20,000 nucleotides of DNA from an uncultured virus (IMG/VR IMGVR_UViG_3300047160_035018) (taxonomy: Duplodnaviria; Heunggongvirae; Uroviricota; Caudoviricetes), in the IMG/VR virus record IMGVR_UViG_3300047160_035018. One strand, 5' to 3'. The position numbers and the translations under genes were made by a program. The notes beneath the pieces are model-generated. The model was given only the letters and a program-made list of their open reading frames with translations, had not been told where the DNA came from and did no database searches. Below are positions 1,190-20,000 of the stretch, piece after piece (within the stretch, counting starts at the first letter, position 1; every line of letters begins with the position of its first letter).

Positions 1190-1717
1190 ATGGCCTTCGA
1201 CGTGGGAACGAGTTGCGTGATCGAGGAGACCTTCCAGCTCCCGGCCTGCCTTCAGGGCGACCCGGACACGCTGAAGCTCCACGCCGCGATCTCAAAGGTC
1301 ACGACCTACCTCCAGGATCACTGGATCCCGAAGGACCCGTTCGACGTGCCCTACGTCTACCGGACGGCGTACCTCCCCGACTACGTGACGGCGAACGACA
1401 GCGCGGCGCTGGGCCGCATCATGCGCCAGGCCGTGGCCCGCGGCATCAGCCTGCCCGTCCTCCTCGGTCCCCTCGTGGCGAGTGGCCCGGACGTCCAGGT
1501 CACGCCCGATGATGTCGTCTACGTCGCCGCCAACGCCGGCCCCATCGCCGATGCGATGGACCCACTGCTGACAGAGATCCAGGCCGTCGACGCCGTGACG
1601 CCGCCGCCCGCCACGAACTGGCTCTTTGTCACCGCGGTCGTCGCCGGGGCCCTCCTTCTCGGCGCGGCCATCGCCGGCGCCTACACCGAGCACATGAAGG
1701 ACCGCCGTGCGGCCTAG
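1190..1717 (+). CDS. C-terminally membrane-anchored hypothetical protein (175 aa)
   Basis: ATG 1190 (MAFDVGTSCV...). C-terminal hydrophobic helix WLFVTAVVAGALLLGAAIAGAY followed by a basic tail. The track's upstream extension overlaps minus-strand genes. Confidence 0.75.
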   Translation: MAFDVGTSCVIEETFQLPACLQGDPDTLKLHAAISKVTTYLQDHWIPKDPFDVPYVYRTAYLPDYVTANDSAALGRIMRQAVARGISLPVLLGPLVASGPDVQVTPDDVVYVAANAGPIADAMDPLLTEIQAVDAVTPPPATNWLFVTAVVAGALLLGAAIAGAYTEHMKDRRAA

Positions 1718-3704
1718 CTTCCTCGGAGGAGGCGATTTCGGTCTGGGCGAGCTCGCGGCCGAACCGACTGTTCAGGCGCAGTTGAGTAACCAGTTCGACA
1801 AACTCCGTCACTTCCCCGGTCGGCGCAACTGGGATCTTCTCTATGGTCAGATGATCCATGGTCCGATCGCTGGTTACCAACCCTGGGTCGTCGTTGATGC
1901 GCGCAAGCCGGGCCGTGCCCAGATCATCGGCCCACACTTTTCGACGGAGATGGCTCTCGTGACTGCGGTCGAGAAGCACGACACCACCGAGGGGGACCTC
2001 GCGAACATTCTGCGTGAGATGCGCTACAAGAGCCGAGCACCGGCAGCGCGCGTTCCGCAACTGGTCTACACGTACTACGACTTGCCCGGCGTGAAGTACG
2101 GTCGGACCGACGACGACCGATGGCAGGCGTACGACGTGACCGGGGACCGGCCCGTGCCGCTCGGGCCGAGCTACGAGAGCCAGGGCGAGCTCGTCGCGGC
2201 GTTCGACTTCCTGTCGCGCGAGCCCGCAACGTTCCGCAAGGAAGCACGAGCCCTCGTCAAGCGGCGCCAACGCGAGAAGGCCCAGAAGGCCCAGAGGGCC
2301 AAGAAGCCCCAGCCGTCCCCAGCGACGAAGACCCAGAGCCGAGGGGTCAAGCCCTTCGCGCTCATGATCAACCCGAAGACCCTCGATCTCGTCGAGATGT
2401 ACCGGAGTCCGAGTCACAACTACCGCCTGGGCTTCCTCGGCAAGCCCGAGTCCTGCATCGCCAACGCCTACACGGCCGAGGACGCCGATCTGGATGGCCA
2501 GTCCTACGTCCGCATCCACTCGCCGGGCACCTGTGAGAACCCCGCCGACTTCTCTGTTGGCGGTGTGAACCCCGAGTACCAGGGCGACAAGTACGGCCTC
2601 CTCCTCTACGCCGGCGTTGCCGTCGACGCCTACCTGAACCGTGACTATAAGGGCGTCTTCTCCCAGGAGGGCACCCGCTCGCGCGATGCCGACAAGCTCT
2701 GGTCGGGTCTCGTCAAGCACGGGACCGCCCACGACGTCGAGGGTCACCTCGCGACCGAGGAAGAGGTCGAGAACACAGATCAGTTCTGCTGCGAGGTCGA
2801 AGCGCCGGGCCAAGCCTGGTTCGACGTGCGGCGGAACGGCTCGAAGGTCTACCGGAAGGAGATCTGCGAGAACCTCGACTACACCGAGATGGTCGAGTCC
2901 GACGACGCCGGGACCTTCCAGGTCATCAAGGGTGAGGAGATGCTCGACTCCGGCTTCGTCCTCTGGGCCTCGAACCTCGAGGACGATGCCCAGACGGCCC
3001 CCGTCGACCTCGCCGTCCGGGCGAAGGTCAAGGACAAGGACGGCGCGCTCCGGCTCGGGCAGATCCTACGCGACAAGTACGGCGAGACGGCCTATCTCTC
3101 GTTCATGGGACGCACCGACATCCGCGAGCTCTTCGGCCAGCACCGCCTGCCCGGGATCTCCGGCACCGCCAAGCCGCCCGAACTCCCACCTCTCTCGGAC
3201 CGGTCCAAGCGCCTCATCGCGCTCTTTGACGACCTCCCCGCCGTCGGTAAGGACCTCGAAGGACCCGACATCACCTCAGCCATGACCTCTGCGCGGTCGA
3301 GCTCGGGCCGCGACCTCGATGGCCCCGCGCTCGATGGCCCCGCGCTCGGAGATCTCGGGGCCCGTCCGCGGCGCGCCGAGGAACCCGAGGGGAACGAGCG
3401 CATGGACCTCCTCGCCGAGCGGGACCGGCTCTGGCGAGAGCAGGAGCGCTGGGCCTTCCGCTCGGGCCCCGCCGCCCGCAAGAAGGAAAACGAGATCGAG
3501 GCCGAGATCCACAGGGTGGAGGAGCGAATCCGGGCCCTGCCGCGGACCACCCTGGAAGGGATCTACGCGGGGTCCGGGACGGCCATCGTCCTCGTCTTGG
3601 CCGGCGGCGCACTCCTCGGCGGGCTCCTCTGGGCCCTCCTCCGGGCCCACCCGGCCCCGGTGGCCCCGGTCCCCTTGAACCCACTCCAAGGAGCATGGCG
3701 ATGA
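1707..3704 (+). CDS. Large multidomain protein with duplicated N-terminal module, GNAT-like domain and C-terminal TM helix
   Basis: 665-aa ORF. GNAT motif-A-like VNPEYQGDKYGLLLY and downstream SRDADKLWSGL; TM AIVLVLAGGALLGGLLWALL near the C-terminus. Confidence 0.75.
   Translation: MRPSFLGGGDFGLGELAAEPTVQAQLSNQFDKLRHFPGRRNWDLLYGQMIHGPIAGYQPWVVVDARKPGRAQIIGPHFSTEMALVTAVEKHDTTEGDLANILREMRYKSRAPAARVPQLVYTYYDLPGVKYGRTDDDRWQAYDVTGDRPVPLGPSYESQGELVAAFDFLSREPATFRKEARALVKRRQREKAQKAQRAKKPQPSPATKTQSRGVKPFALMINPKTLDLVEMYRSPSHNYRLGFLGKPESCIANAYTAEDADLDGQSYVRIHSPGTCENPADFSVGGVNPEYQGDKYGLLLYAGVAVDAYLNRDYKGVFSQEGTRSRDADKLWSGLVKHGTAHDVEGHLATEEEVENTDQFCCEVEAPGQAWFDVRRNGSKVYRKEICENLDYTEMVESDDAGTFQVIKGEEMLDSGFVLWASNLEDDAQTAPVDLAVRAKVKDKDGALRLGQILRDKYGETAYLSFMGRTDIRELFGQHRLPGISGTAKPPELPPLSDRSKRLIALFDDLPAVGKDLEGPDITSAMTSARSSSGRDLDGPALDGPALGDLGARPRRAEEPEGNERMDLLAERDRLWREQERWAFRSGPAARKKENEIEAEIHRVEERIRALPRTTLEGIYAGSGTAIVLVLAGGALLGGLLWALLRAHPAPVAPVPLNPLQGAWR
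3315..3348 (+). repeat. 15-bp tandem repeat (CTCGATGGCCCCGCG x2 plus partial) encoding LDGPA-LDGPA-L
   Basis: Exact in-frame repeat read directly from the sequence. Confidence 0.9.
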
Positions 3705-6937: not shown

Positions 6938-7689
6938 CGCTCCGGCTCGGCAAGCTTCCGCCGCGGGTCGACCCGCGCACGCTCCAGATGGCGAAGTACC
7001 TCGTCAGTTCCGGTGGGCCACTGCCGGCGCCGCCGGCGCGCCGTACATGGTCCCAGGCGGCCTCACCGGCCTGGGGCATGATGAAGAACGACGAGCTCGG
7101 CGACTGCACGTGCGCGGCCGCGGGCCACGCCATCCAGGTCTTCTCGGCGAACGCCGAAGCGGAGATCACGCCGACCGACGACCAGATCCTCGCCGCGTAC
7201 GAGGGCGCGTGCGGCTACGTCCCGGGCCAGCCCGACACCGATCGCGGCGGCGTCGAGCTCGACGTCCTCTCTTACTGGCAGAAGACCGGCATCGCCGGGG
7301 TCCAGATCGAGGCCTTCGCCGCGTGCGAGCCGGGGAACCATACCCACGTCAAGGCGGCCATCGACCTCTTCGGCGGCTGCTACATCGGGCTCGCCTTGCC
7401 CGCGTCGGCCCAGCGCCAGGTGGGCTCGGTCTGGTCCGTGGTCGCCGGACCATCGGCCGAGCCGGGCTCCTGGGGCGGCCATGCCGTGTTCGTGCCGGAC
7501 TACGACCGCCACGGCCTCACGTGCATCACCTGGGGCCAGCCGCAACGCATGACGTGGGGCTTCTGGCGGAAGTACACCGACGAGGCCTACGCGCTCCTCT
7601 GCCCGGACCTCTGGGCGCCGAATGGCGTCGCGCCGTCGGGGTTCGACATCGCCGCGCTGCGTGCCGATCTGGCACTCGTGGCGGGGTAA
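6934..7689 (+). CDS. Papain-like cysteine peptidase
   Basis: WGMMKNDELGDCTCAAAGH (catalytic Cys region), WGGHAV (His), ITWG; GTG start at 6934 by GTGA overlap. Confidence 0.8.
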   Translation: MTLRLGKLPPRVDPRTLQMAKYLVSSGGPLPAPPARRTWSQAASPAWGMMKNDELGDCTCAAAGHAIQVFSANAEAEITPTDDQILAAYEGACGYVPGQPDTDRGGVELDVLSYWQKTGIAGVQIEAFAACEPGNHTHVKAAIDLFGGCYIGLALPASAQRQVGSVWSVVAGPSAEPGSWGGHAVFVPDYDRHGLTCITWGQPQRMTWGFWRKYTDEAYALLCPDLWAPNGVAPSGFDIAALRADLALVAG

Positions 7690-8596: not shown

Positions 8597-9247
8597 CTAC
8601 TCGAGCGGGCTCGCCTCGGCATGGCCGGCCGATAGGCTCACGTTGCCGCCGCCGTCGATGCCGCCGAAGGTCTCGAACGTCGAGAACGTGCCGTCACAGT
8701 TGAGATCGCCGATCGCGTCGGCGTAGAAGTACTCACCCGCGCCGGTCCCGGTCGGGATGGTGCCGTCGCCGAGCGTCGGAGCTGCCTTCGTGATGGTATC
8801 CACGCCTCCCGTGGCCCCCGAGCCTTGGTCGTGGTTGTACATGTAGGCGTAGTAGTGTGGATCGGTCATCGCGAACTTGAGCTGCTGCCAGGCCTGATCG
8901 GTCCAGATCACCGGGTTCGGCTGGCACTTCCCGACGCCGGCGATGGTGCAGCAAGGGTGCCCGCCAGCGATGGCCGGCTCGGTGTCACCGGTCGCGCCCG
9001 CCGCGCCCGCGACGCCCGGGAACTGTCTGGCCACGGGGATCGCCGTCCCCGCGGCGTTCATCTCCTCGTGGTAGTACGAGGTCGCGCCCTCCGCGATCTT
9101 CTTGATGTTCGTCGTGGCCTCGGTCGTCTTCGACTTACGAACGTTCTTCATGAACGCCGGGATGGCGATGGCCGCCAGGATCCCGATGATGGCCACGACC
9201 ACCATGAGCTCGATCAGCGTGAACCCGTTCTTGATCGTCTTCCGCAT
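8597..9247 (-). CDS. pilA: Type IVa prepilin (myxobacterial-type major pilin), 216 aa
   Basis: MRKTIKNG|FTLIELMVVVAIIGILAAIAIPAF class III signal with Glu5; C-terminal CC...W..L.F.M.DPHYY...GDLNCDG.FSTF. SD GGAAGGAG before ATG 9247. Confidence 0.92.
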   Translation of the reverse strand: MRKTIKNGFTLIELMVVVAIIGILAAIAIPAFMKNVRKSKTTEATTNIKKIAEGATSYYHEEMNAAGTAIPVARQFPGVAGAAGATGDTEPAIAGGHPCCTIAGVGKCQPNPVIWTDQAWQQLKFAMTDPHYYAYMYNHDQGSGATGGVDTITKAAPTLGDGTIPTGTGAGEYFYADAIGDLNCDGTFSTFETFGGIDGGGNVSLSAGHAEASPLE

Positions 9248-9290
9248 TTTTTTCTCCTTCCGCGCAGCACCGCGCTGCGCATCCATCGGT

Positions 9291-9306
9291 AGCACATCAC
9301 GTGCCG
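9291..9306 (-). promoter_or_regulatory. sigma54 (-24/-12) promoter of the pilin gene
   Basis: Minus strand CGGCACG-TGAT-GTGCT with exact GG-N10-GC spacing, about 45 nt upstream of the ATG. Confidence 0.75.
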
Positions 9307-11002: not shown

Positions 11003-11712
11003 TCAGCCTTCAACTTGAGGAGGCCGCGCGCGGCCAACTCGTCCATGCCGTCGAGGAAGTCCGGCCGGCCCCCCTGCGCGATCAGTCCATCCGCCAGCCG
11101 CCGCGCGCGATCAGCGACAGTTCCGGCCGCGTCCTGCGCCGAGCGCGACCAGCACGCGCGGCTGATCTCCACCGCTGTCAGGTCCAGCGCCGCGGCGCGG
11201 GCATGGGCGGACAGCGAGGTGTCCGCCGCGATCTCAGCCACGCGGGCTTCGTAGTATTCGACTGACCCGACTCTGCTCGTTACCGTCATCGTCTGTCCTC
11301 CCAGCGCGCGTCCAGCGCGCTCCTTCAGCCACACCGAGAGGGCGTGCAGATCAGCCTCACTGACACCGGCGCTCTCGGTGCCATCCCAGGACTCGGCCCA
11401 GTTCGCAGCGCTCTCGCGGCAGTACTCGTCCAGCTCGTCGCCGTCGAGCGCCCGCAACCCGTCGAGCTCGCCGGCGGCATCCGTCCAGTCGTACGCCGGG
11501 TGAAGGCGCAGGGGAAGCTCGATGGCGCGGATGGCCCGGTCAGTCGCAACCTCCCCGGCACTGAGACGCAGGCCGGCGCGATCGGCGACCCACTCACAGC
11601 CGGCGGCGTGCTCCTCGGCCAGGGCCGCCCACTTCGCGTCGTCGTCGACGGCCGGGATCTTGCCGTCCTCGACCTCGGCATTGCAGTAGTCGCACTCGTA
11701 GGTCTCGCTCAT
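10999..11712 (-). CDS. Hypothetical protein with N-terminal CxxC...H...C motif
   Basis: ECDYC...EHAAGCEW; ATGA coupling. Confidence 0.7.
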   Translation of the reverse strand: MSETYECDYCNAEVEDGKIPAVDDDAKWAALAEEHAAGCEWVADRAGLRLSAGEVATDRAIRAIELPLRLHPAYDWTDAAGELDGLRALDGDELDEYCRESAANWAESWDGTESAGVSEADLHALSVWLKERAGRALGGQTMTVTSRVGSVEYYEARVAEIAADTSLSAHARAAALDLTAVEISRACWSRSAQDAAGTVADRARRLADGLIAQGGRPDFLDGMDELAARGLLKLKAE

Positions 11713-12306: not shown

Positions 12307-13539
12307 TCAGATCTCCAGGGGGCGAATGCGATTGCCCCGATCGTCAATCCAGATGGTCACGCCGCGCTCGTCGGCGCCGAAGTTCCGCGGCCAGGCGGGC
12401 CCGCCCGGGATGCCATCGGCGTCAACCCAGTCGGCGGCCGGCGCGGCCGGTGCCGCATCCACGGCCGGCGGCGCGGCCGGTGCAACCTCGACAACCTCAG
12501 CGGCCGGCGCGGCCGGAACCGGCGGGTCAGCGGCGCCGCTCATGTCGACGTTGGCGAACCGCGCCACAGCGTCAGCAGCGCGATCCTGCCAGTCGGGCAC
12601 AATCGGGCGATCTTCCAGGTCGAGGAGAACGGGCGCGCCCACGTCGCGACCATCCAGCTTGCCCTTCGCGTACTCGAGGGTCATGGCGAGATTGCGCTTG
12701 AGCTTCTCGACCAGATTGATCGCGGCAACGGCCGGCCGCTCGAACAGGTCGGAGTAGCGGTTGATCTTGGCGCGCCACTCCGAGATGAGACCGAATCGCC
12801 GCTCAAGCGCGCGGGTCCCGATCGCGCCATCCTCGTCGAGAGTGACCGCCGCCAGCTCCGCCTGCAGCGCCTCCGCCGCAACCCGCGCCTCCGCCTCGAG
12901 ACCGGCCAGGATGGTATCCACGGCCGCATCGCTCCGCATGGCGGGAATCTCGCCGACGAAATGACGGGTCGACGCGGCGACGGCGCCGATCATCTCCCGC
13001 CACAGCGCCGCATGCTTGGGGGGCACGTAGTACACCCCGCCACTGTCCCGCAGGACGGCCACACCGTCGCACGCATCGACACAGCGCCGGAGAAACAGGC
13101 TCATGTCGCCGTGGGCCAGCTCGCGCCGCGCCGCCTGGTAGGCGCCAGCGATGCGCGGCGCATCCGGATCGTGCGTAGGGGACCCATCGGGGTTGGACAC
13201 GACGATCCGATCCTTGTCGGACGGGTCGACCCGCACGACGAGCCGCGGGGCATACTCGGGCAGACCCGAGGCGAACCCCACGTCCACGATGGCCCAACCG
13301 CCGCCAGCGCTGGCGGGGAGCTTCTCGAGCCGCACGCCAGCCTTGCCCGCCGAGCGGATCGCCACACCTAGTGCCGCCTCCGGCGTCACGGGCTGAGGAA
13401 GCAACTTCTCGGGCAGGTTGCGCTCGGACCATGCCGCGACGAGCCGCGCAAGGTCAGCCGAGCCATGGAGCGACCAGCCAGCGATGAGGCCAAAGCCCGC
13501 GCCGCCGCCGTCGGTTACTGCGATGAGGTTGGGGGCCAT
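12307..13539 (-). CDS. DUF6744/DUF3150-like mobile-element protein with Ala/Pro-rich linker
   Basis: 410 aa; N-terminal G....WSL...L...W....L....LP and LRDSGGVYYVP motif; PAAPA repeats near the C-terminus. Confidence 0.6.
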   Translation of the reverse strand: MAPNLIAVTDGGGAGFGLIAGWSLHGSADLARLVAAWSERNLPEKLLPQPVTPEAALGVAIRSAGKAGVRLEKLPASAGGGWAIVDVGFASGLPEYAPRLVVRVDPSDKDRIVVSNPDGSPTHDPDAPRIAGAYQAARRELAHGDMSLFLRRCVDACDGVAVLRDSGGVYYVPPKHAALWREMIGAVAASTRHFVGEIPAMRSDAAVDTILAGLEAEARVAAEALQAELAAVTLDEDGAIGTRALERRFGLISEWRAKINRYSDLFERPAVAAINLVEKLKRNLAMTLEYAKGKLDGRDVGAPVLLDLEDRPIVPDWQDRAADAVARFANVDMSGAADPPVPAAPAAEVVEVAPAAPPAVDAAPAAPAADWVDADGIPGGPAWPRNFGADERGVTIWIDDRGNRIRPLEI

Positions 13540-13541
13540 GG

Positions 13542-13763
13542 CTACGCCCCCACCTTGCGGAGAAGCACCTTGACCGCCCGCTCGAGGCGGTCACGATACC
13601 GCTCCTTCAGCTGAAGGTCGCCCGAGCGACGCAGCGAAAACGCTGCGTCGCAGGCGATAGCCGCCAGTTCGTCAATTTCCATGTCGTCATCAATGCGGAA
13701 CGCGCGCGCATTGATGAGGAGACGGCACATCTCCTCCTCAGCCTCGGACCTAATGTAGGACAT
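13542..13763 (-). CDS. Hypothetical protein, first gene of the leftward arm
   Basis: SD GGAAAGG; follows a sigma54 promoter and hairpin leader. Confidence 0.75.
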   Translation of the reverse strand: MSYIRSEAEEEMCRLLINARAFRIDDDMEIDELAAIACDAAFSLRRSGDLQLKERYRDRLERAVKVLLRKVGA

Positions 13764-13772
13764 CTGGGAACG

Positions 13773-13818
13773 CCTTTCCGCTCTGTCCGCCAGAGCTTGC
13801 CGCGCCGTCCGCCGGCGC
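13773..13818 (-). promoter_or_regulatory. Twin pentaloop-hairpin leader plus SD (leftward)
   Basis: GCGCCG-GCGGA-CGGCGC, GGCAA, GCTCTG-GCGGA-CAGAGC, GGAAAGG. Confidence 0.75.
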
Positions 13819-13832
13819 CTGACCAGGTACCT

Positions 13833-13848
13833 TGCATCGCCCGTGCCA
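13833..13848 (-). promoter_or_regulatory. sigma54 promoter, leftward arm
   Basis: Minus strand TGGCACG-GGCG-ATGCA, one mismatch from TGGCACG-N4-TTGCW. Confidence 0.85.
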
Positions 13849-14061
13849 GCCTTTATATCAGTATAACTACCTGTTTTTACTTGCTCGCCATAGGGAGCCT
13901 GTCGCTTTTTCGGTCAGGCACGGTCCCGCGCGCCTGGCCACCGTAGCTACTTTACCTAGTAGTTTCGCAGTTATACGCCTCGCCTGTCGTGCCATCGGTC
14001 GCCTCTGACGCGAAACAGGACAGTCAGGCGGGTTGGCCACGTATTTACGCCTACTTACACG

Positions 14062-14077
14062 TGGCACGCCCGCTGCA
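14062..14077 (+). promoter_or_regulatory. sigma54 promoter, rightward arm
   Basis: TGGCACG-CCCG-CTGCA, one mismatch from consensus. Confidence 0.85.
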
Positions 14078-14088
14078 ATACCGTCCCT

Positions 14089-14138
14089 CGTGCCGACGGA
14101 CGGCACGCCAAAGGGCCCGGCTGACGGGCCCGGAAAGG
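14089..14138 (+). promoter_or_regulatory. Twin pentaloop-hairpin leader plus SD (rightward)
   Basis: CGTGCCG-ACGGA-CGGCACG, CCAAA, GGGCCCG-GCTGA-CGGGCCC, GGAAAGG. Confidence 0.75.
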
Positions 14139-14143
14139 TCCCG

Positions 14144-14683
14144 ATGGATACCATCTTCCCCAAGGGCCAGATTCAGGCTGTGGTTTCAGTGGCTTCGGAT
14201 GATTTCTGCCGTCAGGGCATCTATGGTGTCTCGGTCGGCGACGGCTATCTGTGCGCGACCGATGGCCATCGGCTCCTGCAGGTCAAGGCCACGGCTAGCG
14301 CCGCGCCGAGCGCCTACGTGGCGAAGGAAGGCCTCCAGATCGCCGCCGCCGCCGCCAAGGGCAAGGGTGCCGCCGTCCGGCTGAACGGCCGGATCGAGGC
14401 GCGCAACGGAGCTGGCGCGGTTCTGGCCACGGCCGAACTGGTCCCCATCGATGCCCAGTTTCCGCCCGTGGACCAGGCCATCCCGCAGGACGGGCCCGCC
14501 ATCGCGTCCTTCAACCCGCGGCTCCTGGGTGAAACGCTCCTGGCCATGGCCAGGGCGGGGTGTGAGTGTGTCTCCCTCACGTTCGCCGAGAGTGAGGCGC
14601 ACGTGTCACCGCTCAAGATCGCTGGCATCGCCGCCGATGGCGGCGCCGAGGTTGTGGCCGTCGTCATGCCGAGGAGAGCGTAG
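14144..14683 (+). CDS. Truncated DNA polymerase III beta-clamp-like protein (179 aa; central and C-terminal domains)
   Basis: ASDD..R..I.GV, ATDGHRL, FPP....IP, FNP..L and terminal VVMPRR match DnaN domain II/III motifs. SD GGAAAGG. Confidence 0.8.
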   Translation: MDTIFPKGQIQAVVSVASDDFCRQGIYGVSVGDGYLCATDGHRLLQVKATASAAPSAYVAKEGLQIAAAAAKGKGAAVRLNGRIEARNGAGAVLATAELVPIDAQFPPVDQAIPQDGPAIASFNPRLLGETLLAMARAGCECVSLTFAESEAHVSPLKIAGIAADGGAEVVAVVMPRRA

Positions 14684-15556: not shown

Positions 15557-15763
15557 ATGAGCCGGCGCTACACCCTCGACGATCTCAGGCACACGCCGCT
15601 CGGCGACGTTATCGCCGCTTGGCGCGCCGGGTCCGTCGACGATCGCACCTACGAGGAGTACCGGTGCCTCTGGCGCAACAGCGCGCCGCGGTTCTCGAAC
15701 GAGTGCAAGGAGCATGACGGCCACGATCCCGCGCAGTGTCCTCGCGTGACGGAGATGGGCTAA
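15557..15763 (+). CDS. Hypothetical protein (68 aa)
   Basis: TAGCCATG junction; SD GAGGAG. Confidence 0.7.
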   Translation: MSRRYTLDDLRHTPLGDVIAAWRAGSVDDRTYEEYRCLWRNSAPRFSNECKEHDGHDPAQCPRVTEMG

Positions 15764-15764
15764 G

Positions 15765-15998
15765 ATGCGCGCCCACTGCTCTTGCGGTGACAACCGCGTC
15801 CACGTGGTGGCCAGGCGTACAACCGCCGACCACGTAGGGCTCAAGCTTTGGTCAGACGGCGCCGTGACGAACGTCATCGGAGGGTACCCGCCGAGCATGC
15901 GGAAGGTCCCGGCCGCCCTGATCTTCGACTTCGCCGCCGAGGTCGAGGCCTACGACTGGTCCGAGCTTCACGTGCTCGGCCGGAAGGTGAGGGGCTAA
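15765..15998 (+). CDS. Hypothetical protein
   Basis: Flanked by 14-bp direct repeats GGGCTAAGATGCGC. Confidence 0.7.
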   Translation: MRAHCSCGDNRVHVVARRTTADHVGLKLWSDGAVTNVIGGYPPSMRKVPAALIFDFAAEVEAYDWSELHVLGRKVRG

Positions 15999-15999
15999 G

Positions 16000-16404
16000 A
16001 TGCGCCAGCGCCACCACTACGTGGTCCAGTACGTCATCACGGTCGACCGGCCGGAGCTGCGCGGGCCCACGTTTTTGACGACGGTCCGCCCGGGAACCAG
16101 GATCCCACAGGCCGCGGAGTACCTCACGCTCGCGGCGGCGCGCGCCCGGTACGATGATCTCAAGGACGGCATCGACGATTTCACGTCAGAGTACGTGTCC
16201 GTCATCGACGGGATCCGCCGTGAACCCTCCGCAAGCGCCGCCACCCGCTGGGTGAGGGGCGCGCCCACGATCCGCCGACGCCGCATCAAGGACGGCACGG
16301 TCCATGAGCCGCATCCTTGCCCGCGGTGCCAGGGCGAGACCTGGGAACCCACCGACATCAACTGTCTGGCGTGCCAGGCACTTGCGCGAGGATCCCATGC
16401 GTAA
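16000..16404 (+). CDS. Hypothetical protein with C-terminal CxxC...CxxC zinc finger
   Basis: CPRC...CLAC. Confidence 0.7.
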   Translation: MRQRHHYVVQYVITVDRPELRGPTFLTTVRPGTRIPQAAEYLTLAAARARYDDLKDGIDDFTSEYVSVIDGIRREPSASAATRWVRGAPTIRRRRIKDGTVHEPHPCPRCQGETWEPTDINCLACQALARGSHA

Positions 16405-16714
16405 CCGCTACGTGGTCCAGTACGTCATCAAGTGGTCGGGGTCGTGGAACGTGGTGGATAGGACGTCCTCCGGGGGACCCGTCGCGAACCATCTGAACCG
16501 CGCCGATGCGCGTGCCGACGCGAAGCGACGCAACGATGACGCCGGCCCGTGCACTGATTGCCGCGGCCGGGGCTGGCTGCACATGCGCTCCTCGGATACC
16601 GGCCCGCTCGACCACATCGAGCGCTGCGATACGTGCCGGTGCTTCACCAGCGACAAAGCGGCCGCGAAACAGCACGCCCACGACTGCGCGTGCGGGAGGA
16701 CGGCTCGGTCATGA
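16397..16714 (+). CDS. Hypothetical zinc-binding protein
   Basis: ATG 16397 after GAGGA; CTDCRGRG...RCDTC...H..DC; N-terminus duplicated from the previous gene. Confidence 0.7.
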   Translation: MRNRYVVQYVIKWSGSWNVVDRTSSGGPVANHLNRADARADAKRRNDDAGPCTDCRGRGWLHMRSSDTGPLDHIERCDTCRCFTSDKAAAKQHAHDCACGRTARS

Positions 16715-18242: not shown

Positions 18243-18613
18243 TCGATCTCGACGAGGACAGTTACGTGGCGTGCATCTGGTTCGTGGCCATCGACGAGCC
18301 GCGGGGCAGTTACCTCGGCACGCTCTTTCGCCCGCATCCCGGTGCGTCGATGCGCTTCCACTACCGGACCCGGTACGAGGACGATGCCCAGGACGCACGG
18401 CTCGGGCGCTCCGCGACGCTCGTCGCCCTTGGCCCGGCCGAGGACATCGCCGCCATGGAGCGCGCCCTGGACGATTCCATCGGTCTTGTCGCCGCCGAGC
18501 TTGGCGCGCCACTCCAGAAGCTCAAAGTCCACGGCGGCATTCATCGCCTCGCCGAACTCAGCGAGACCGTGCCGTGGATGCACGCACGGTCGACCGCCGA
18601 GGTCAAGGCATGA
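18239..18613 (+). CDS. Hypothetical protein
   Basis: ATGA coupling at both ends. Confidence 0.75.
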   Translation: MIDLDEDSYVACIWFVAIDEPRGSYLGTLFRPHPGASMRFHYRTRYEDDAQDARLGRSATLVALGPAEDIAAMERALDDSIGLVAAELGAPLQKLKVHGGIHRLAELSETVPWMHARSTAEVKA

Positions 18614-18807
18614 AGAAGGAGTGGACCGCGCGGGATCTTGACGTCATCGGGCGCGCCGAGATGTTTCCCGCTGGCAACACGAGAGAGCGGCGGAGCCGAC
18701 GCTGGCGGTATGCCCGCCGCGCCTACTTCGCGAGCGGCCAGCACCGAGCTTGGACGCGGGTCCATACCGCAACGCTGATCCTTCCTCTCCCAGAGGGACA
18801 ACCATGA
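18610..18807 (+). CDS. Small Arg-rich hypothetical protein
   Basis: ATGA coupling at both ends; bridges to the Cas12m-like gene. Confidence 0.6.
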   Translation: MKKEWTARDLDVIGRAEMFPAGNTRERRSRRWRYARRAYFASGQHRAWTRVHTATLILPLPEGQP

Positions 18808-20000
18808 TCGTCTACAAGTTCTGGGCCGAGCCCGTCAGCAAGGAGGACCGTAACCTCCTCGCCCAGCAGCTCCGCATGGCGGCGCTCTACCGGCGCGAGC
18901 TCGCCCAGATCGAGAACCGCGCCCGGTTCCTTCTCCGCGCCGGCATCGGCTACCCCAGCGAGGAGCGGAAGGCCCACCGGACGCTCGTGAACACGGCCCA
19001 CGCCGAGGCGACCCGCGCCGCGCGCGCCCGCGCCAGCGACGCCGGCCTCTACTGGGGTACCTACCTCTGCGTCGAGAACGCCACCGACCAGTCACAGCGA
19101 ACGACCTCCCTCGCGAGCGACGTGGCCACGTTCTCACCCGCCGATGAGGGACTCCTGGGGGTCCAGATCCAGAAGACCAAGCCGCTCCGTACCGGCGAGG
19201 TCATGGGCGGTACGGACCGTCGACTCCGCATCGGCACCGAGCTCGTCGCCAAGCGCGAGGGCGGCGCGCGTCGGCTCCAGGTCCTCTGGTTCCGGGTCGG
19301 CTCGAACCCCGACGCCACGCCCGTCTGGGCCAAGCTCTACGTGCTCCTTCACCGGCCCCTGCCCATGTCTGCGGCGCCGACCCTGGGCGCCGACTCCGAA
19401 AATCGTCTCGGTCCCGACGTCAAGTGGGCGCTGCTCCGGTGCCGGCGCACCGGGCCGCGCCATCGCTGGGAGTTCCACCTCGTCCTCGACATGGAGGCCA
19501 GGGGCACGCCGCTCGCCCACCGCGCCGATGCCGTGGGCGTGGACATCGGCTGGCGGCGCGTCGACGCGGGCATCCGCATCGCGTACTGGCACGGCTCCGA
19601 CGGCCGCGAGGGCGAGCTCGTCGTGCCCGATGCGGTCGCACGGCGTGACGGGAAGTCGGACAGCCTGCGCTCCATCCGGGATGTCCAGCGGGACATCATG
19701 CAGGCGCGGCTGGTGGCGTTCCGGCAGGCAGTCTCTGCGGGCTCGAGGACGGGGCCCGACTTTGCGTTCAGCTGGTTCCTGGACGAGACGACCGCGCTCC
19801 ACAGTTGGAAGCGTATGGGCCGGTACGTCCACCTCTTCCGGCTCTGGTCCCAGCACCGCTTCGACGGCGACGAGAGTATGTACATCCAGGTCGAGAAGTG
19901 GCTGAAGCACGATCGCCACCTTTACAGTTGGGAGACGCACAACCGGCGCCGGCAGAGCCTCCAGGTCGCAGGGAGGGTGAGGCAGTTCGTGGTGGAGCTC
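18804..20000 (+). CDS. cas12m: Cas12m (type V-M/V-U1)-like, TnpB-derived RNA-guided protein; 3'-truncated by the window (first 399 codons)
   Basis: Hand translation, open to the window end: MIVYKFW...QQLRMAALYRRELAQIE...GLYWGTYL...GLLGVQIQ...FRVGS...PVWA...LHRPLP...WEFHLVL...AVGVDIGWR (RuvC-I)...GELVVP...WK...WLKHDRHLYSWE. Motif order parallels MmCas12m as I recall it. Confidence 0.82.
   Translation, partial: MIVYKFWAEPVSKEDRNLLAQQLRMAALYRRELAQIENRARFLLRAGIGYPSEERKAHRTLVNTAHAEATRAARARASDAGLYWGTYLCVENATDQSQRTTSLASDVATFSPADEGLLGVQIQKTKPLRTGEVMGGTDRRLRIGTELVAKREGGARRLQVLWFRVGSNPDATPVWAKLYVLLHRPLPMSAAPTLGADSENRLGPDVKWALLRCRRTGPRHRWEFHLVLDMEARGTPLAHRADAVGVDIGWRRVDAGIRIAYWHGSDGREGELVVPDAVARRDGKSDSLRSIRDVQRDIMQARLVAFRQAVSAGSRTGPDFAFSWFLDETTALHSWKRMGRYVHLFRLWSQHRFDGDESMYIQVEKWLKHDRHLYSWETHNRRRQSLQVAGRVRQFVVEL

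Follow-up and report, generated by a model that had tools for sequence, protein, structure and literature searches.

Both divergent early transcripts of an uncultured soil phage open, directly behind predicted sigma-54-type promoters, with a pair of tandem hairpins that carry five-base loops and lead straight into a Shine-Dalgarno (SD)-like sequence. The presence of these twin hairpins on both transcripts and their stable folding are confirmed, and comparison of the copies supports selection on the stem pairing. The explanation that we favour, which we judge about evenly balanced between right and wrong, is a structural role in the mRNA leader: the twin element would shield the 5' end, keep the ribosome site insulated and need no dedicated ligand.

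The window, which is the whole stretch of DNA analysed, is a 20 kb part of a 79,787-base contig. It contains an amidase, a type IV pilin and many short open reading frames (ORFs) without family assignment, which form two divergent runs, leftwards from 13763 and rightwards from 14144 (Table 1). The first protein of the left operon gave only generic helical matches in fold searches and is a plain helical bundle; more distant relatives of the second carry DUF6744. The first protein of the right operon shows similarity to a portion of the processivity clamp of DNA polymerases and had no relative in a word-indexed search. The eleven best metagenomic relatives of the pilin share 59-81% identity with it, the named matches further down the list are labelled Kofleriaceae and Bradymonadia, and the best NCBIfam model for the pilin is the myxobacterial PilA, at a score far below the cut-off. 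The phage probably infects myxobacteria (a Myxococcota host). Two further proteins without assignment, encoded at 1190-1717 and 1707-3704 (+), have by eye hydrophobic C-terminal stretches, and the 1190-1717 protein is conserved in the relative of the phage described below.

Promoters and transcription starts were placed with a sigma-54 consensus and a -24/-12 spacing rule that we take to apply here, which puts the predicted +1 at 13822 (left), 14088 (right) and 9280 (pilin). All three sigma-54 leaders of the window open with a stem, at the predicted +1 in the pilin leader and at +2 and +5 in the early leaders. The spacer between the divergent promoters holds three copies of CTGTC, presumably an activator-site motif, in 211 bases, against 30 in the whole window. 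It also contains an imperfect inverted repeat at ~13981-14030 (6 of 300 shuffles as high) and a short stretch in common with the equivalent spacer of the relative, L167 (7 of 300 shuffles as high); all three features are candidate activator sites. No activator motif was found to be common to the early spacer and the region upstream of the pilin gene (196 and 266 of 300 shuffles as high), and borrowing of pilin control by the early operons is therefore unsupported here. Sigma-54 promoters require an activator, and PilR is described as driving pilA in M. xanthus (PMC6211767).

Table 1. Promoters, leader elements and genes of the window; positions are counted from its first base.
Feature	Coordinates	Strand	Remarks
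Leftward sigma-54-type promoter (-24/-12)	13833..13848	-	From sequence; equivalent site in relative L167
Rightward sigma-54-type promoter (-24/-12)	14062..14077	+	From sequence
Sigma-54-type promoter of pilin gene	9291..9306	-	From sequence
Spacer between divergent promoters	13849..14061	.	AT-rich flanks; candidate activator sites
Left hairpin 1	13802..13818	-	6 bp; loop GCGGA; starts at predicted +5
Left linker	13797..13801	-	5 nt
Left hairpin 2	13780..13796	-	6 bp; loop GCGGA; adjoins SD
Left SD-like GGAAAGG	13773..13779	-	9 nt 5' of ATG 13763
Right hairpin 1	14089..14107	+	7 bp; loop ACGGA; starts at predicted +2
Right linker	14108..14112	+	5 nt
Right hairpin 2	14113..14131	+	7 bp; loop GCUGA; adjoins SD
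Right SD-like GGAAAGG	14132..14138	+	5 nt 5' of ATG 14144
Pilin-leader hairpin (single)	9262..9280	-	7 bp; C-G-closed loop GCGGU; first base at predicted +1; adjoins SD
First left-operon gene	13542..13763	-	73 aa; three helices; no family
Second left-operon gene	12307..13539	-	410 aa; marks the phage group
First right-operon gene	14144..14683	+	179 aa; processivity-clamp-like; phrog_947 E 2.8e-6, phrog_3007 E 2.7e-9
Type IV pilin gene, myxobacterial type	8597..9247	-	
65-aa ORF with arginine-rich stretch	18610-18807	+	Directly before Cas12m-like gene

The coordinates, order and loops of the twin hairpins, first reported in an initial annotation of this DNA, were confirmed from the sequence, as was the claim of perfect 6-7 bp stems with G-C-closed loops: all 26 pairs are Watson-Crick and each of the four loops is closed by G-C. 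The elements measure 39 nt (left) and 43 nt (right). Contigs from three of four sequencing runs, which may be the source or belong to one campaign, reproduce the hairpins letter for letter, thereby excluding an assembly slip. The window contains two tandem pentaloop pairs, both in the early leaders, whereas 100 shuffled windows have a mean of 0.05 and a maximum of 1; any twin of at least 6 bp was formed by 14 and 21 of 20,000 shuffled leaders. When loop sizes of 3-7 are allowed the window has four twins against a shuffled mean of 1.17, and it is thus loop size and position that stand out. Among 131 sigma-54-like sites, from the window and all comparison loci, a perfect stem of at least 6 bp lies at the start in five and a twin in two, both of them the early leaders of the window. 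In both leaders (13764-13779, -; 14132-14143, +) the first letters of the SD can also pair with a pyrimidine run 5' of the ATG, as a weak third hairpin of 3-4 bp.

Alignment of the left and right leaders, past the -12 box, gave a score of 51 compared with 21.7 +/- 5.8 for shuffled sequences, and since none of 2,000 shuffles reached 51 the two leaders are copies of one cassette. The 3' flanks are alike in all four hairpins, suggesting that hairpins 1 and 2 are themselves probably copies of one unit. Across the four copies 24 of 24 cells are paired, five of them changed on both sides, a count that derives from related copies and is not usable as a probability. Pairing as good was seen in 1 of 500 shuffles, and slid registers pair at 25-50%. 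The completely paired cells with their five double changes support selection on the stem pairing in the early leaders. The description of the stems as completely different was, by contrast, too strong: three of the six pairs are invariant in the four copies, among them the closing G-C and another C-G pair, and the two versions of hairpin 1 are set apart by a single pair (10 of 12 letters alike).

Whether the loop sequence is constrained is less clear-cut. Left and right leaders match at 8 of 17 free promoter positions, 16 of 24 stem positions, 8 of 10 loop positions and 4 of 5 linker positions; compared with the free promoter positions (8/17), the loops give P = 0.10 and the loops with the linker (12/15) P = 0.06. 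Loop letters agree with the consensus in 18 of 20 cases, for which P is 0.014, 0.025, 0.24 or 0.74 depending on the yardstick, 0.014 being obtained with the free promoter positions. Deviations are no fewer in the loops (2/20) than in the stem pairs (5/24; Fisher P = 0.43). These figures are at most suggestive of selection on the loop sequence, and the loop identity may be inherited rather than selected, because the leaders are copies of one cassette in which half of the stem pairs are invariant as well. The covariation-like pattern had been taken as a sign of a protein-bound RNA; the selected structure is supported by the paired cells, but protein binding is not established from the likeness of the loops, as the leaders share descent and loop conservation is borderline.

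Protein-led scans of viral contigs returned no relative, and a genome scan returned one, L167/L168 (G001:C15), a phage contig of 33 kb that belongs to the same group and lies in a bin labelled as an alphaproteobacterium, where it is probably mis-binned. It has four genes in common with the window phage (36-50% identity) and encodes a primase-polymerase as well as a helicase and a DNA polymerase, in support of the interpretation as a phage. In the relative, divergent sigma-54-type sites are retained in an equivalent gene setting; of the five matches in its genome, three lie on this contig. At two of these three sites the start codon is at the predicted +3, making the transcripts nearly leaderless, and at the third the leader is longer and forms two perfect hairpins, unlike those of the window in sequence and with tiny loops. 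No hairpin of at least 4 bp with the loop consensus of the window is present in L167 or L168. These comparisons indicate that sigma-54 early promoters are a trait of the phage group and that the twin element is not; the use of such promoters by two distant phages is interesting in itself. Loops not conserved in relatives had been named as a finding that would speak against a protein-bound element, and this applies in part, in that the only relative with DNA lacks them. The absence of the twin element from one distant relative limits the case for a lineage-specific operator and leaves room for it.

Searches for further copies, by a covariance model and in Rfam as the initial annotation had proposed, yielded none beyond the two leaders. 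Rfam gave no match at gathering score (best E 2.1 in 13600-14300), and the description of the element as a possibly undescribed motif therefore stands. The covariance model, R1, was built from two sequences only, the two leaders; with filters its only matches below E 0.28 were these two, in a search that took in 131 other loci and 1.58 Mb of sequence. Run without filters it also reported 7417-7497 (E 0.012), a candidate that we rejected as G+C bias, being antisense in a coding region with the first loop broken. The pattern scans used exact patterns, which leaders with other loops would escape: in viral sequences the strict twin pattern had no match, a promoter with one loop at least 120 (longest stem among the matches listed, 4 bp) and a promoter with two loops eight, with stems of only 1-2 bp. 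The strict pattern had 46 matches in metagenomes, none of which has two stems; a lone 7-bp stem in one of them falls within a coding region. Phage and plasmid collections held no real match, one search giving distant polymerases only. The twin-hairpin element is thus not catalogued and has so far been seen in one phage.

These searches bear on the idea that the hairpins are a DNA-level or near-neutral feature, namely inverted repeats that template switching has made perfect, promoter-adjacent sites for cruciforms or operators, or remnants of a small mobile repeat. Perfect Watson-Crick pairing in every stem would fit such an origin, and both strands fold almost equally well as DNA. Model R1, however, detects only the two leaders in the window and nothing in the other loci searched; REP-like mobile repeats, for comparison, are recognised by many dispersed copies. 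A conserved loop between variable arms is the reverse of a double-stranded operator, and the placement exactly between the predicted +1 and the SD in both leaders fits an element that acts as RNA. We consider a DNA-level origin very improbable.

Among known RNA elements the closest in layout are the targets of ANTAR proteins, described as dual stems of at least 3 bp with hexaloops, A at loop position 1, G at position 4 and conserved closing pairs, separated by a linker of 2-25 nt, or 5-12 nt in E. faecalis (PMC3369931, PMC8164766). Compared with the ANTAR targets on record (eutP, nasF, amiE and an actinobacterial translational type), the twin element likewise has two short stems, of 6-7 bp, its 5-nt linkers lie within the described range, the loop G at position 4 is found in 4/4 early loops (5/5 with the pilin loop) and the closing pair is invariant. 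The published accounts also include a sigma-54 leader under ANTAR control, nasF (PMC12591593), as the window leaders are sigma-54 leaders, and translational repression by ANTAR without a terminator (bioRxiv 10.1101/660928). An undescribed dual-hairpin operator of this kind, on which a dimeric host or phage protein would dock through both pentaloops and their closing pairs and so repress or time early-gene translation, would also account for the borderline positive signal in the loops. All four loops nevertheless fold as five bases, not the six of the ANTAR targets as described, and A occupies position 1 in only one of the four. ANTAR targets are further described as overlapping a terminator or holding the SD inside the stems, whereas the early leaders have no terminator-like site and their SD follows hairpin 2. 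No ANTAR, CsrA or N family was found among the 40 window proteins scanned, which represent 20 of the 79.8 kb; in addition the element is absent from the one relative, and descent accounts for much of the likeness between its copies. The twin element would at most work like an ANTAR target, and we regard such an operator as possible but unlikely. A fuller version, in which an ANTAR-like reader of R-C-K-G-A pentaloops on a G-C closing pair switches both early operons and the pilin gene at the RNA level, perhaps borrowed together with the host sigma-54 control of pilin, is likewise doubtful.

The initial annotation had offered two classes of protein-bound RNA, neither of which is borne out. The first is a CsrA/Rsm-type translational operator, in which the GGA of the loops and that of the SD would together bind a CsrA dimer. 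As in leaders bound by CsrA/RsmE such as hcnA, GGA is present in loops (three of the four) and at the SD of both leaders, and right hairpin 1 has the same A-C-GGA-C core as the hcnA loop, which is of high affinity (PMC4005645). The overlap of GGA with the SD is, however, a weak sign, common to many SDs. The bases of the A(N)GGA core are described as not exchangeable (PMC4005645), the first A included; both left loops are without the A and right hairpin 2 is without GGA, leaving one of the four loops that fits. No member of the CsrA family was found among the window proteins scanned. We find this reading scarcely probable at all.

The second class comprises boxB/nut-like sites, more broadly put- or nut-like antitermination, whereby RNA polymerase would be modified by the double hairpin of the nascent transcript, either unaided or together with an arginine-rich phage peptide, for read-through of the long early operons. 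A scan of the window with the boxA consensus gave six matches with one mismatch allowed, where 3.84 are expected; all six lie more than 2 kb from the leaders, and there is no room for boxA 5' of hairpin 1. Between 8000 and 20000, terminator-like sites are no commoner than by chance (5 against 3.4 expected). Nut sites are described as needing boxA, boxB and the arginine-rich N protein, and HK022 put as a double hairpin of ~65 nt (PMC8632103). The position of the twin element just behind both divergent early promoters, and its double hairpin in nascent RNA, recall put (PMC8632103), although the element is shorter at 39 and 43 nt, has simple perfect stems, adjoins an SD, follows sigma-54 promoters and is served by no terminators above chance. 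The lambdoid nut sites, P22 boxB included, carry GNRA-like pentaloops on both divergent early transcripts, and the window leaders may do so too. By sequence, three of the four loops are compatible with the P22 boxB type, in which extrusion of the third base leaves a GCGA tetraloop (PMC12550061, PMC9830547), and two fit GNRNA. In contrast to nut, the window has no boxA near the leaders, two hairpins per leader, one loop that begins with A and no N-like protein identified, and the equivalent transcripts of the relative are nearly leaderless. The arginine-rich 65-aa ORF could in principle supply a peptide, but has neither a family nor a usable look-alike; the other candidate, the 73-aa protein of the left operon, likewise has no family, and its helical fold is uninformative. 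We judge antitermination an improbable function of the element.

The gene that follows the 65-aa ORF (18804-20000, +) lies at the end of the right early operon and is truncated by the edge of the window; its product matches a solved CRISPR-associated DNA-binding Cas12m (E 1.3e-16). No CRISPR array was found near it among the repeats listed for the window. Mimicry of CRISPR repeats by the hairpins, considered on account of this neighbour, was rejected, there being neither a match to an Rfam repeat family nor an array among those repeats.

The hairpin that the initial annotation had likened to the early ones in the pilin leader is real, and occupies with a single stem both places, the predicted 5' end and the position next to the SD. 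Its relatedness is another matter, as its loop is closed by C-G and ends in U, and its alignment with the early leaders is not significant (203 and 829 of 2,000 shuffles score as high). Elsewhere, sigma-54 sites were found in 26 of 75 pilin loci, giving 24 distinct leaders, of which 13 have a stem of at least 6 bp starting in +1 to +8, compared with 2.1 expected; these 24 leaders look interrelated and a myxobacterial origin is established for none. Their loops are unlike one another. In three sigma-54 pilin leaders of other bacteria (L208, L214 and L216) the 5' hairpins are G-rich and have AGGA in their loops, which fits the CsrA core better than do the loops of the window.

The preferred reading, a structural leader, would begin with a promoter and leader cassette built, as the alignments suggest, from two copies of one hairpin unit, and duplicated in inverted orientation such that both early operons start alike. 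Selection has since then maintained the pairing, as the compensated changes show. Hairpin 1, only a few bases from the predicted 5' end, would hinder 5'-end-dependent decay, and hairpin 2 would lock up the G+C-rich leader just 5' of the SD, making the ribosome site act like that of a message without a leader. The likeness of the loops would come mainly from descent and from the compact folding of G(C)xGA loops, and the outcome would be long-lived, well-translated early messages made by the host sigma-54 polymerase. Structure at the 5' end is described as stabilising mRNA against RppH and RNase E, which need single-stranded ends (PMC3997798). The 5'-terminal stem-loop stabilisers of E. coli ompA and papA, as presented there, resemble the twin element in having a strong stem near the 5' end, here a predicted one, with the ribosome site open downstream, and differ from it in that the phage has two near-identical small tandem units with a common pentaloop in both divergent leaders, behind starts that are predicted. 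The compensated changes agree with a gain in half-life that would depend on pairing and not on sequence.

Several observations bear on the structural leader. By analogy, the stems that open 13 of the 24 sigma-54 pilin leaders, with loops unlike one another, would favour it, as would the stem at the predicted start of all three sigma-54 leaders of the window, the common descent and maintained pairing of the early leaders, and loops that deviate no less than the stem pairs; the relative does without the twin element, and the comparisons with CsrA, ANTAR and nut elements fail. Against it stand the loops and linker, whose greater likeness than the free positions is borderline, the pilin loop, which again begins GCGG, the invariance of the closing G-C and second C-G pairs, and the absence of G-U among 26 pairs (P 0.015 to 0.26), which is a little odd. 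In favour of insulation, the computed cost of opening the ribosome site is 8.86, 9.83 and 6.58 kcal/mol, within 0.6 kcal/mol of the values without the leader (8.59, 9.23 and 6.58). Shuffled leaders, however, often do equally well (38, 62 and 104 of 300), and the gain in access is thus not significant. At the 5' end of the left message, some four bases would stay unpaired ahead of the hairpin. As B. subtilis RppH is described as needing two unpaired bases and preferring three (PMC3997798), these would suffice for that enzyme, which argues against shielding. Stem-loops off the path are reported to barely hinder scanning by RNase E (PMC9943677), and by the same measure hairpin 2 would add little to stability.

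To our knowledge, little RNA-level control has been described in this phylum and phage group. Should a protein recognise the loops, the element would be a new class of RNA operator in both, and at 40 nt with four natural variants it is easy to test. If the structural reading is true, it would be a natural example of a phage duplicating a sigma-54 promoter and leader cassette for both of its early operons, and a compact stabilising leader for myxobacterial expression, although the mechanism would not be new.

Local duplication is common in this part of the early region. Two neighbouring early ORFs have a common 32-base start (16008-16039 and 16399-16430; 91% identity), and the gene junctions at 15748-15770 and 15983-16005 are repeated. 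Within ORF 11712-10999, a perfect 7-bp pentaloop hairpin (11303-11321, -) directly precedes an SD-like run that is followed by an in-frame start codon, and could mark an internal start there.
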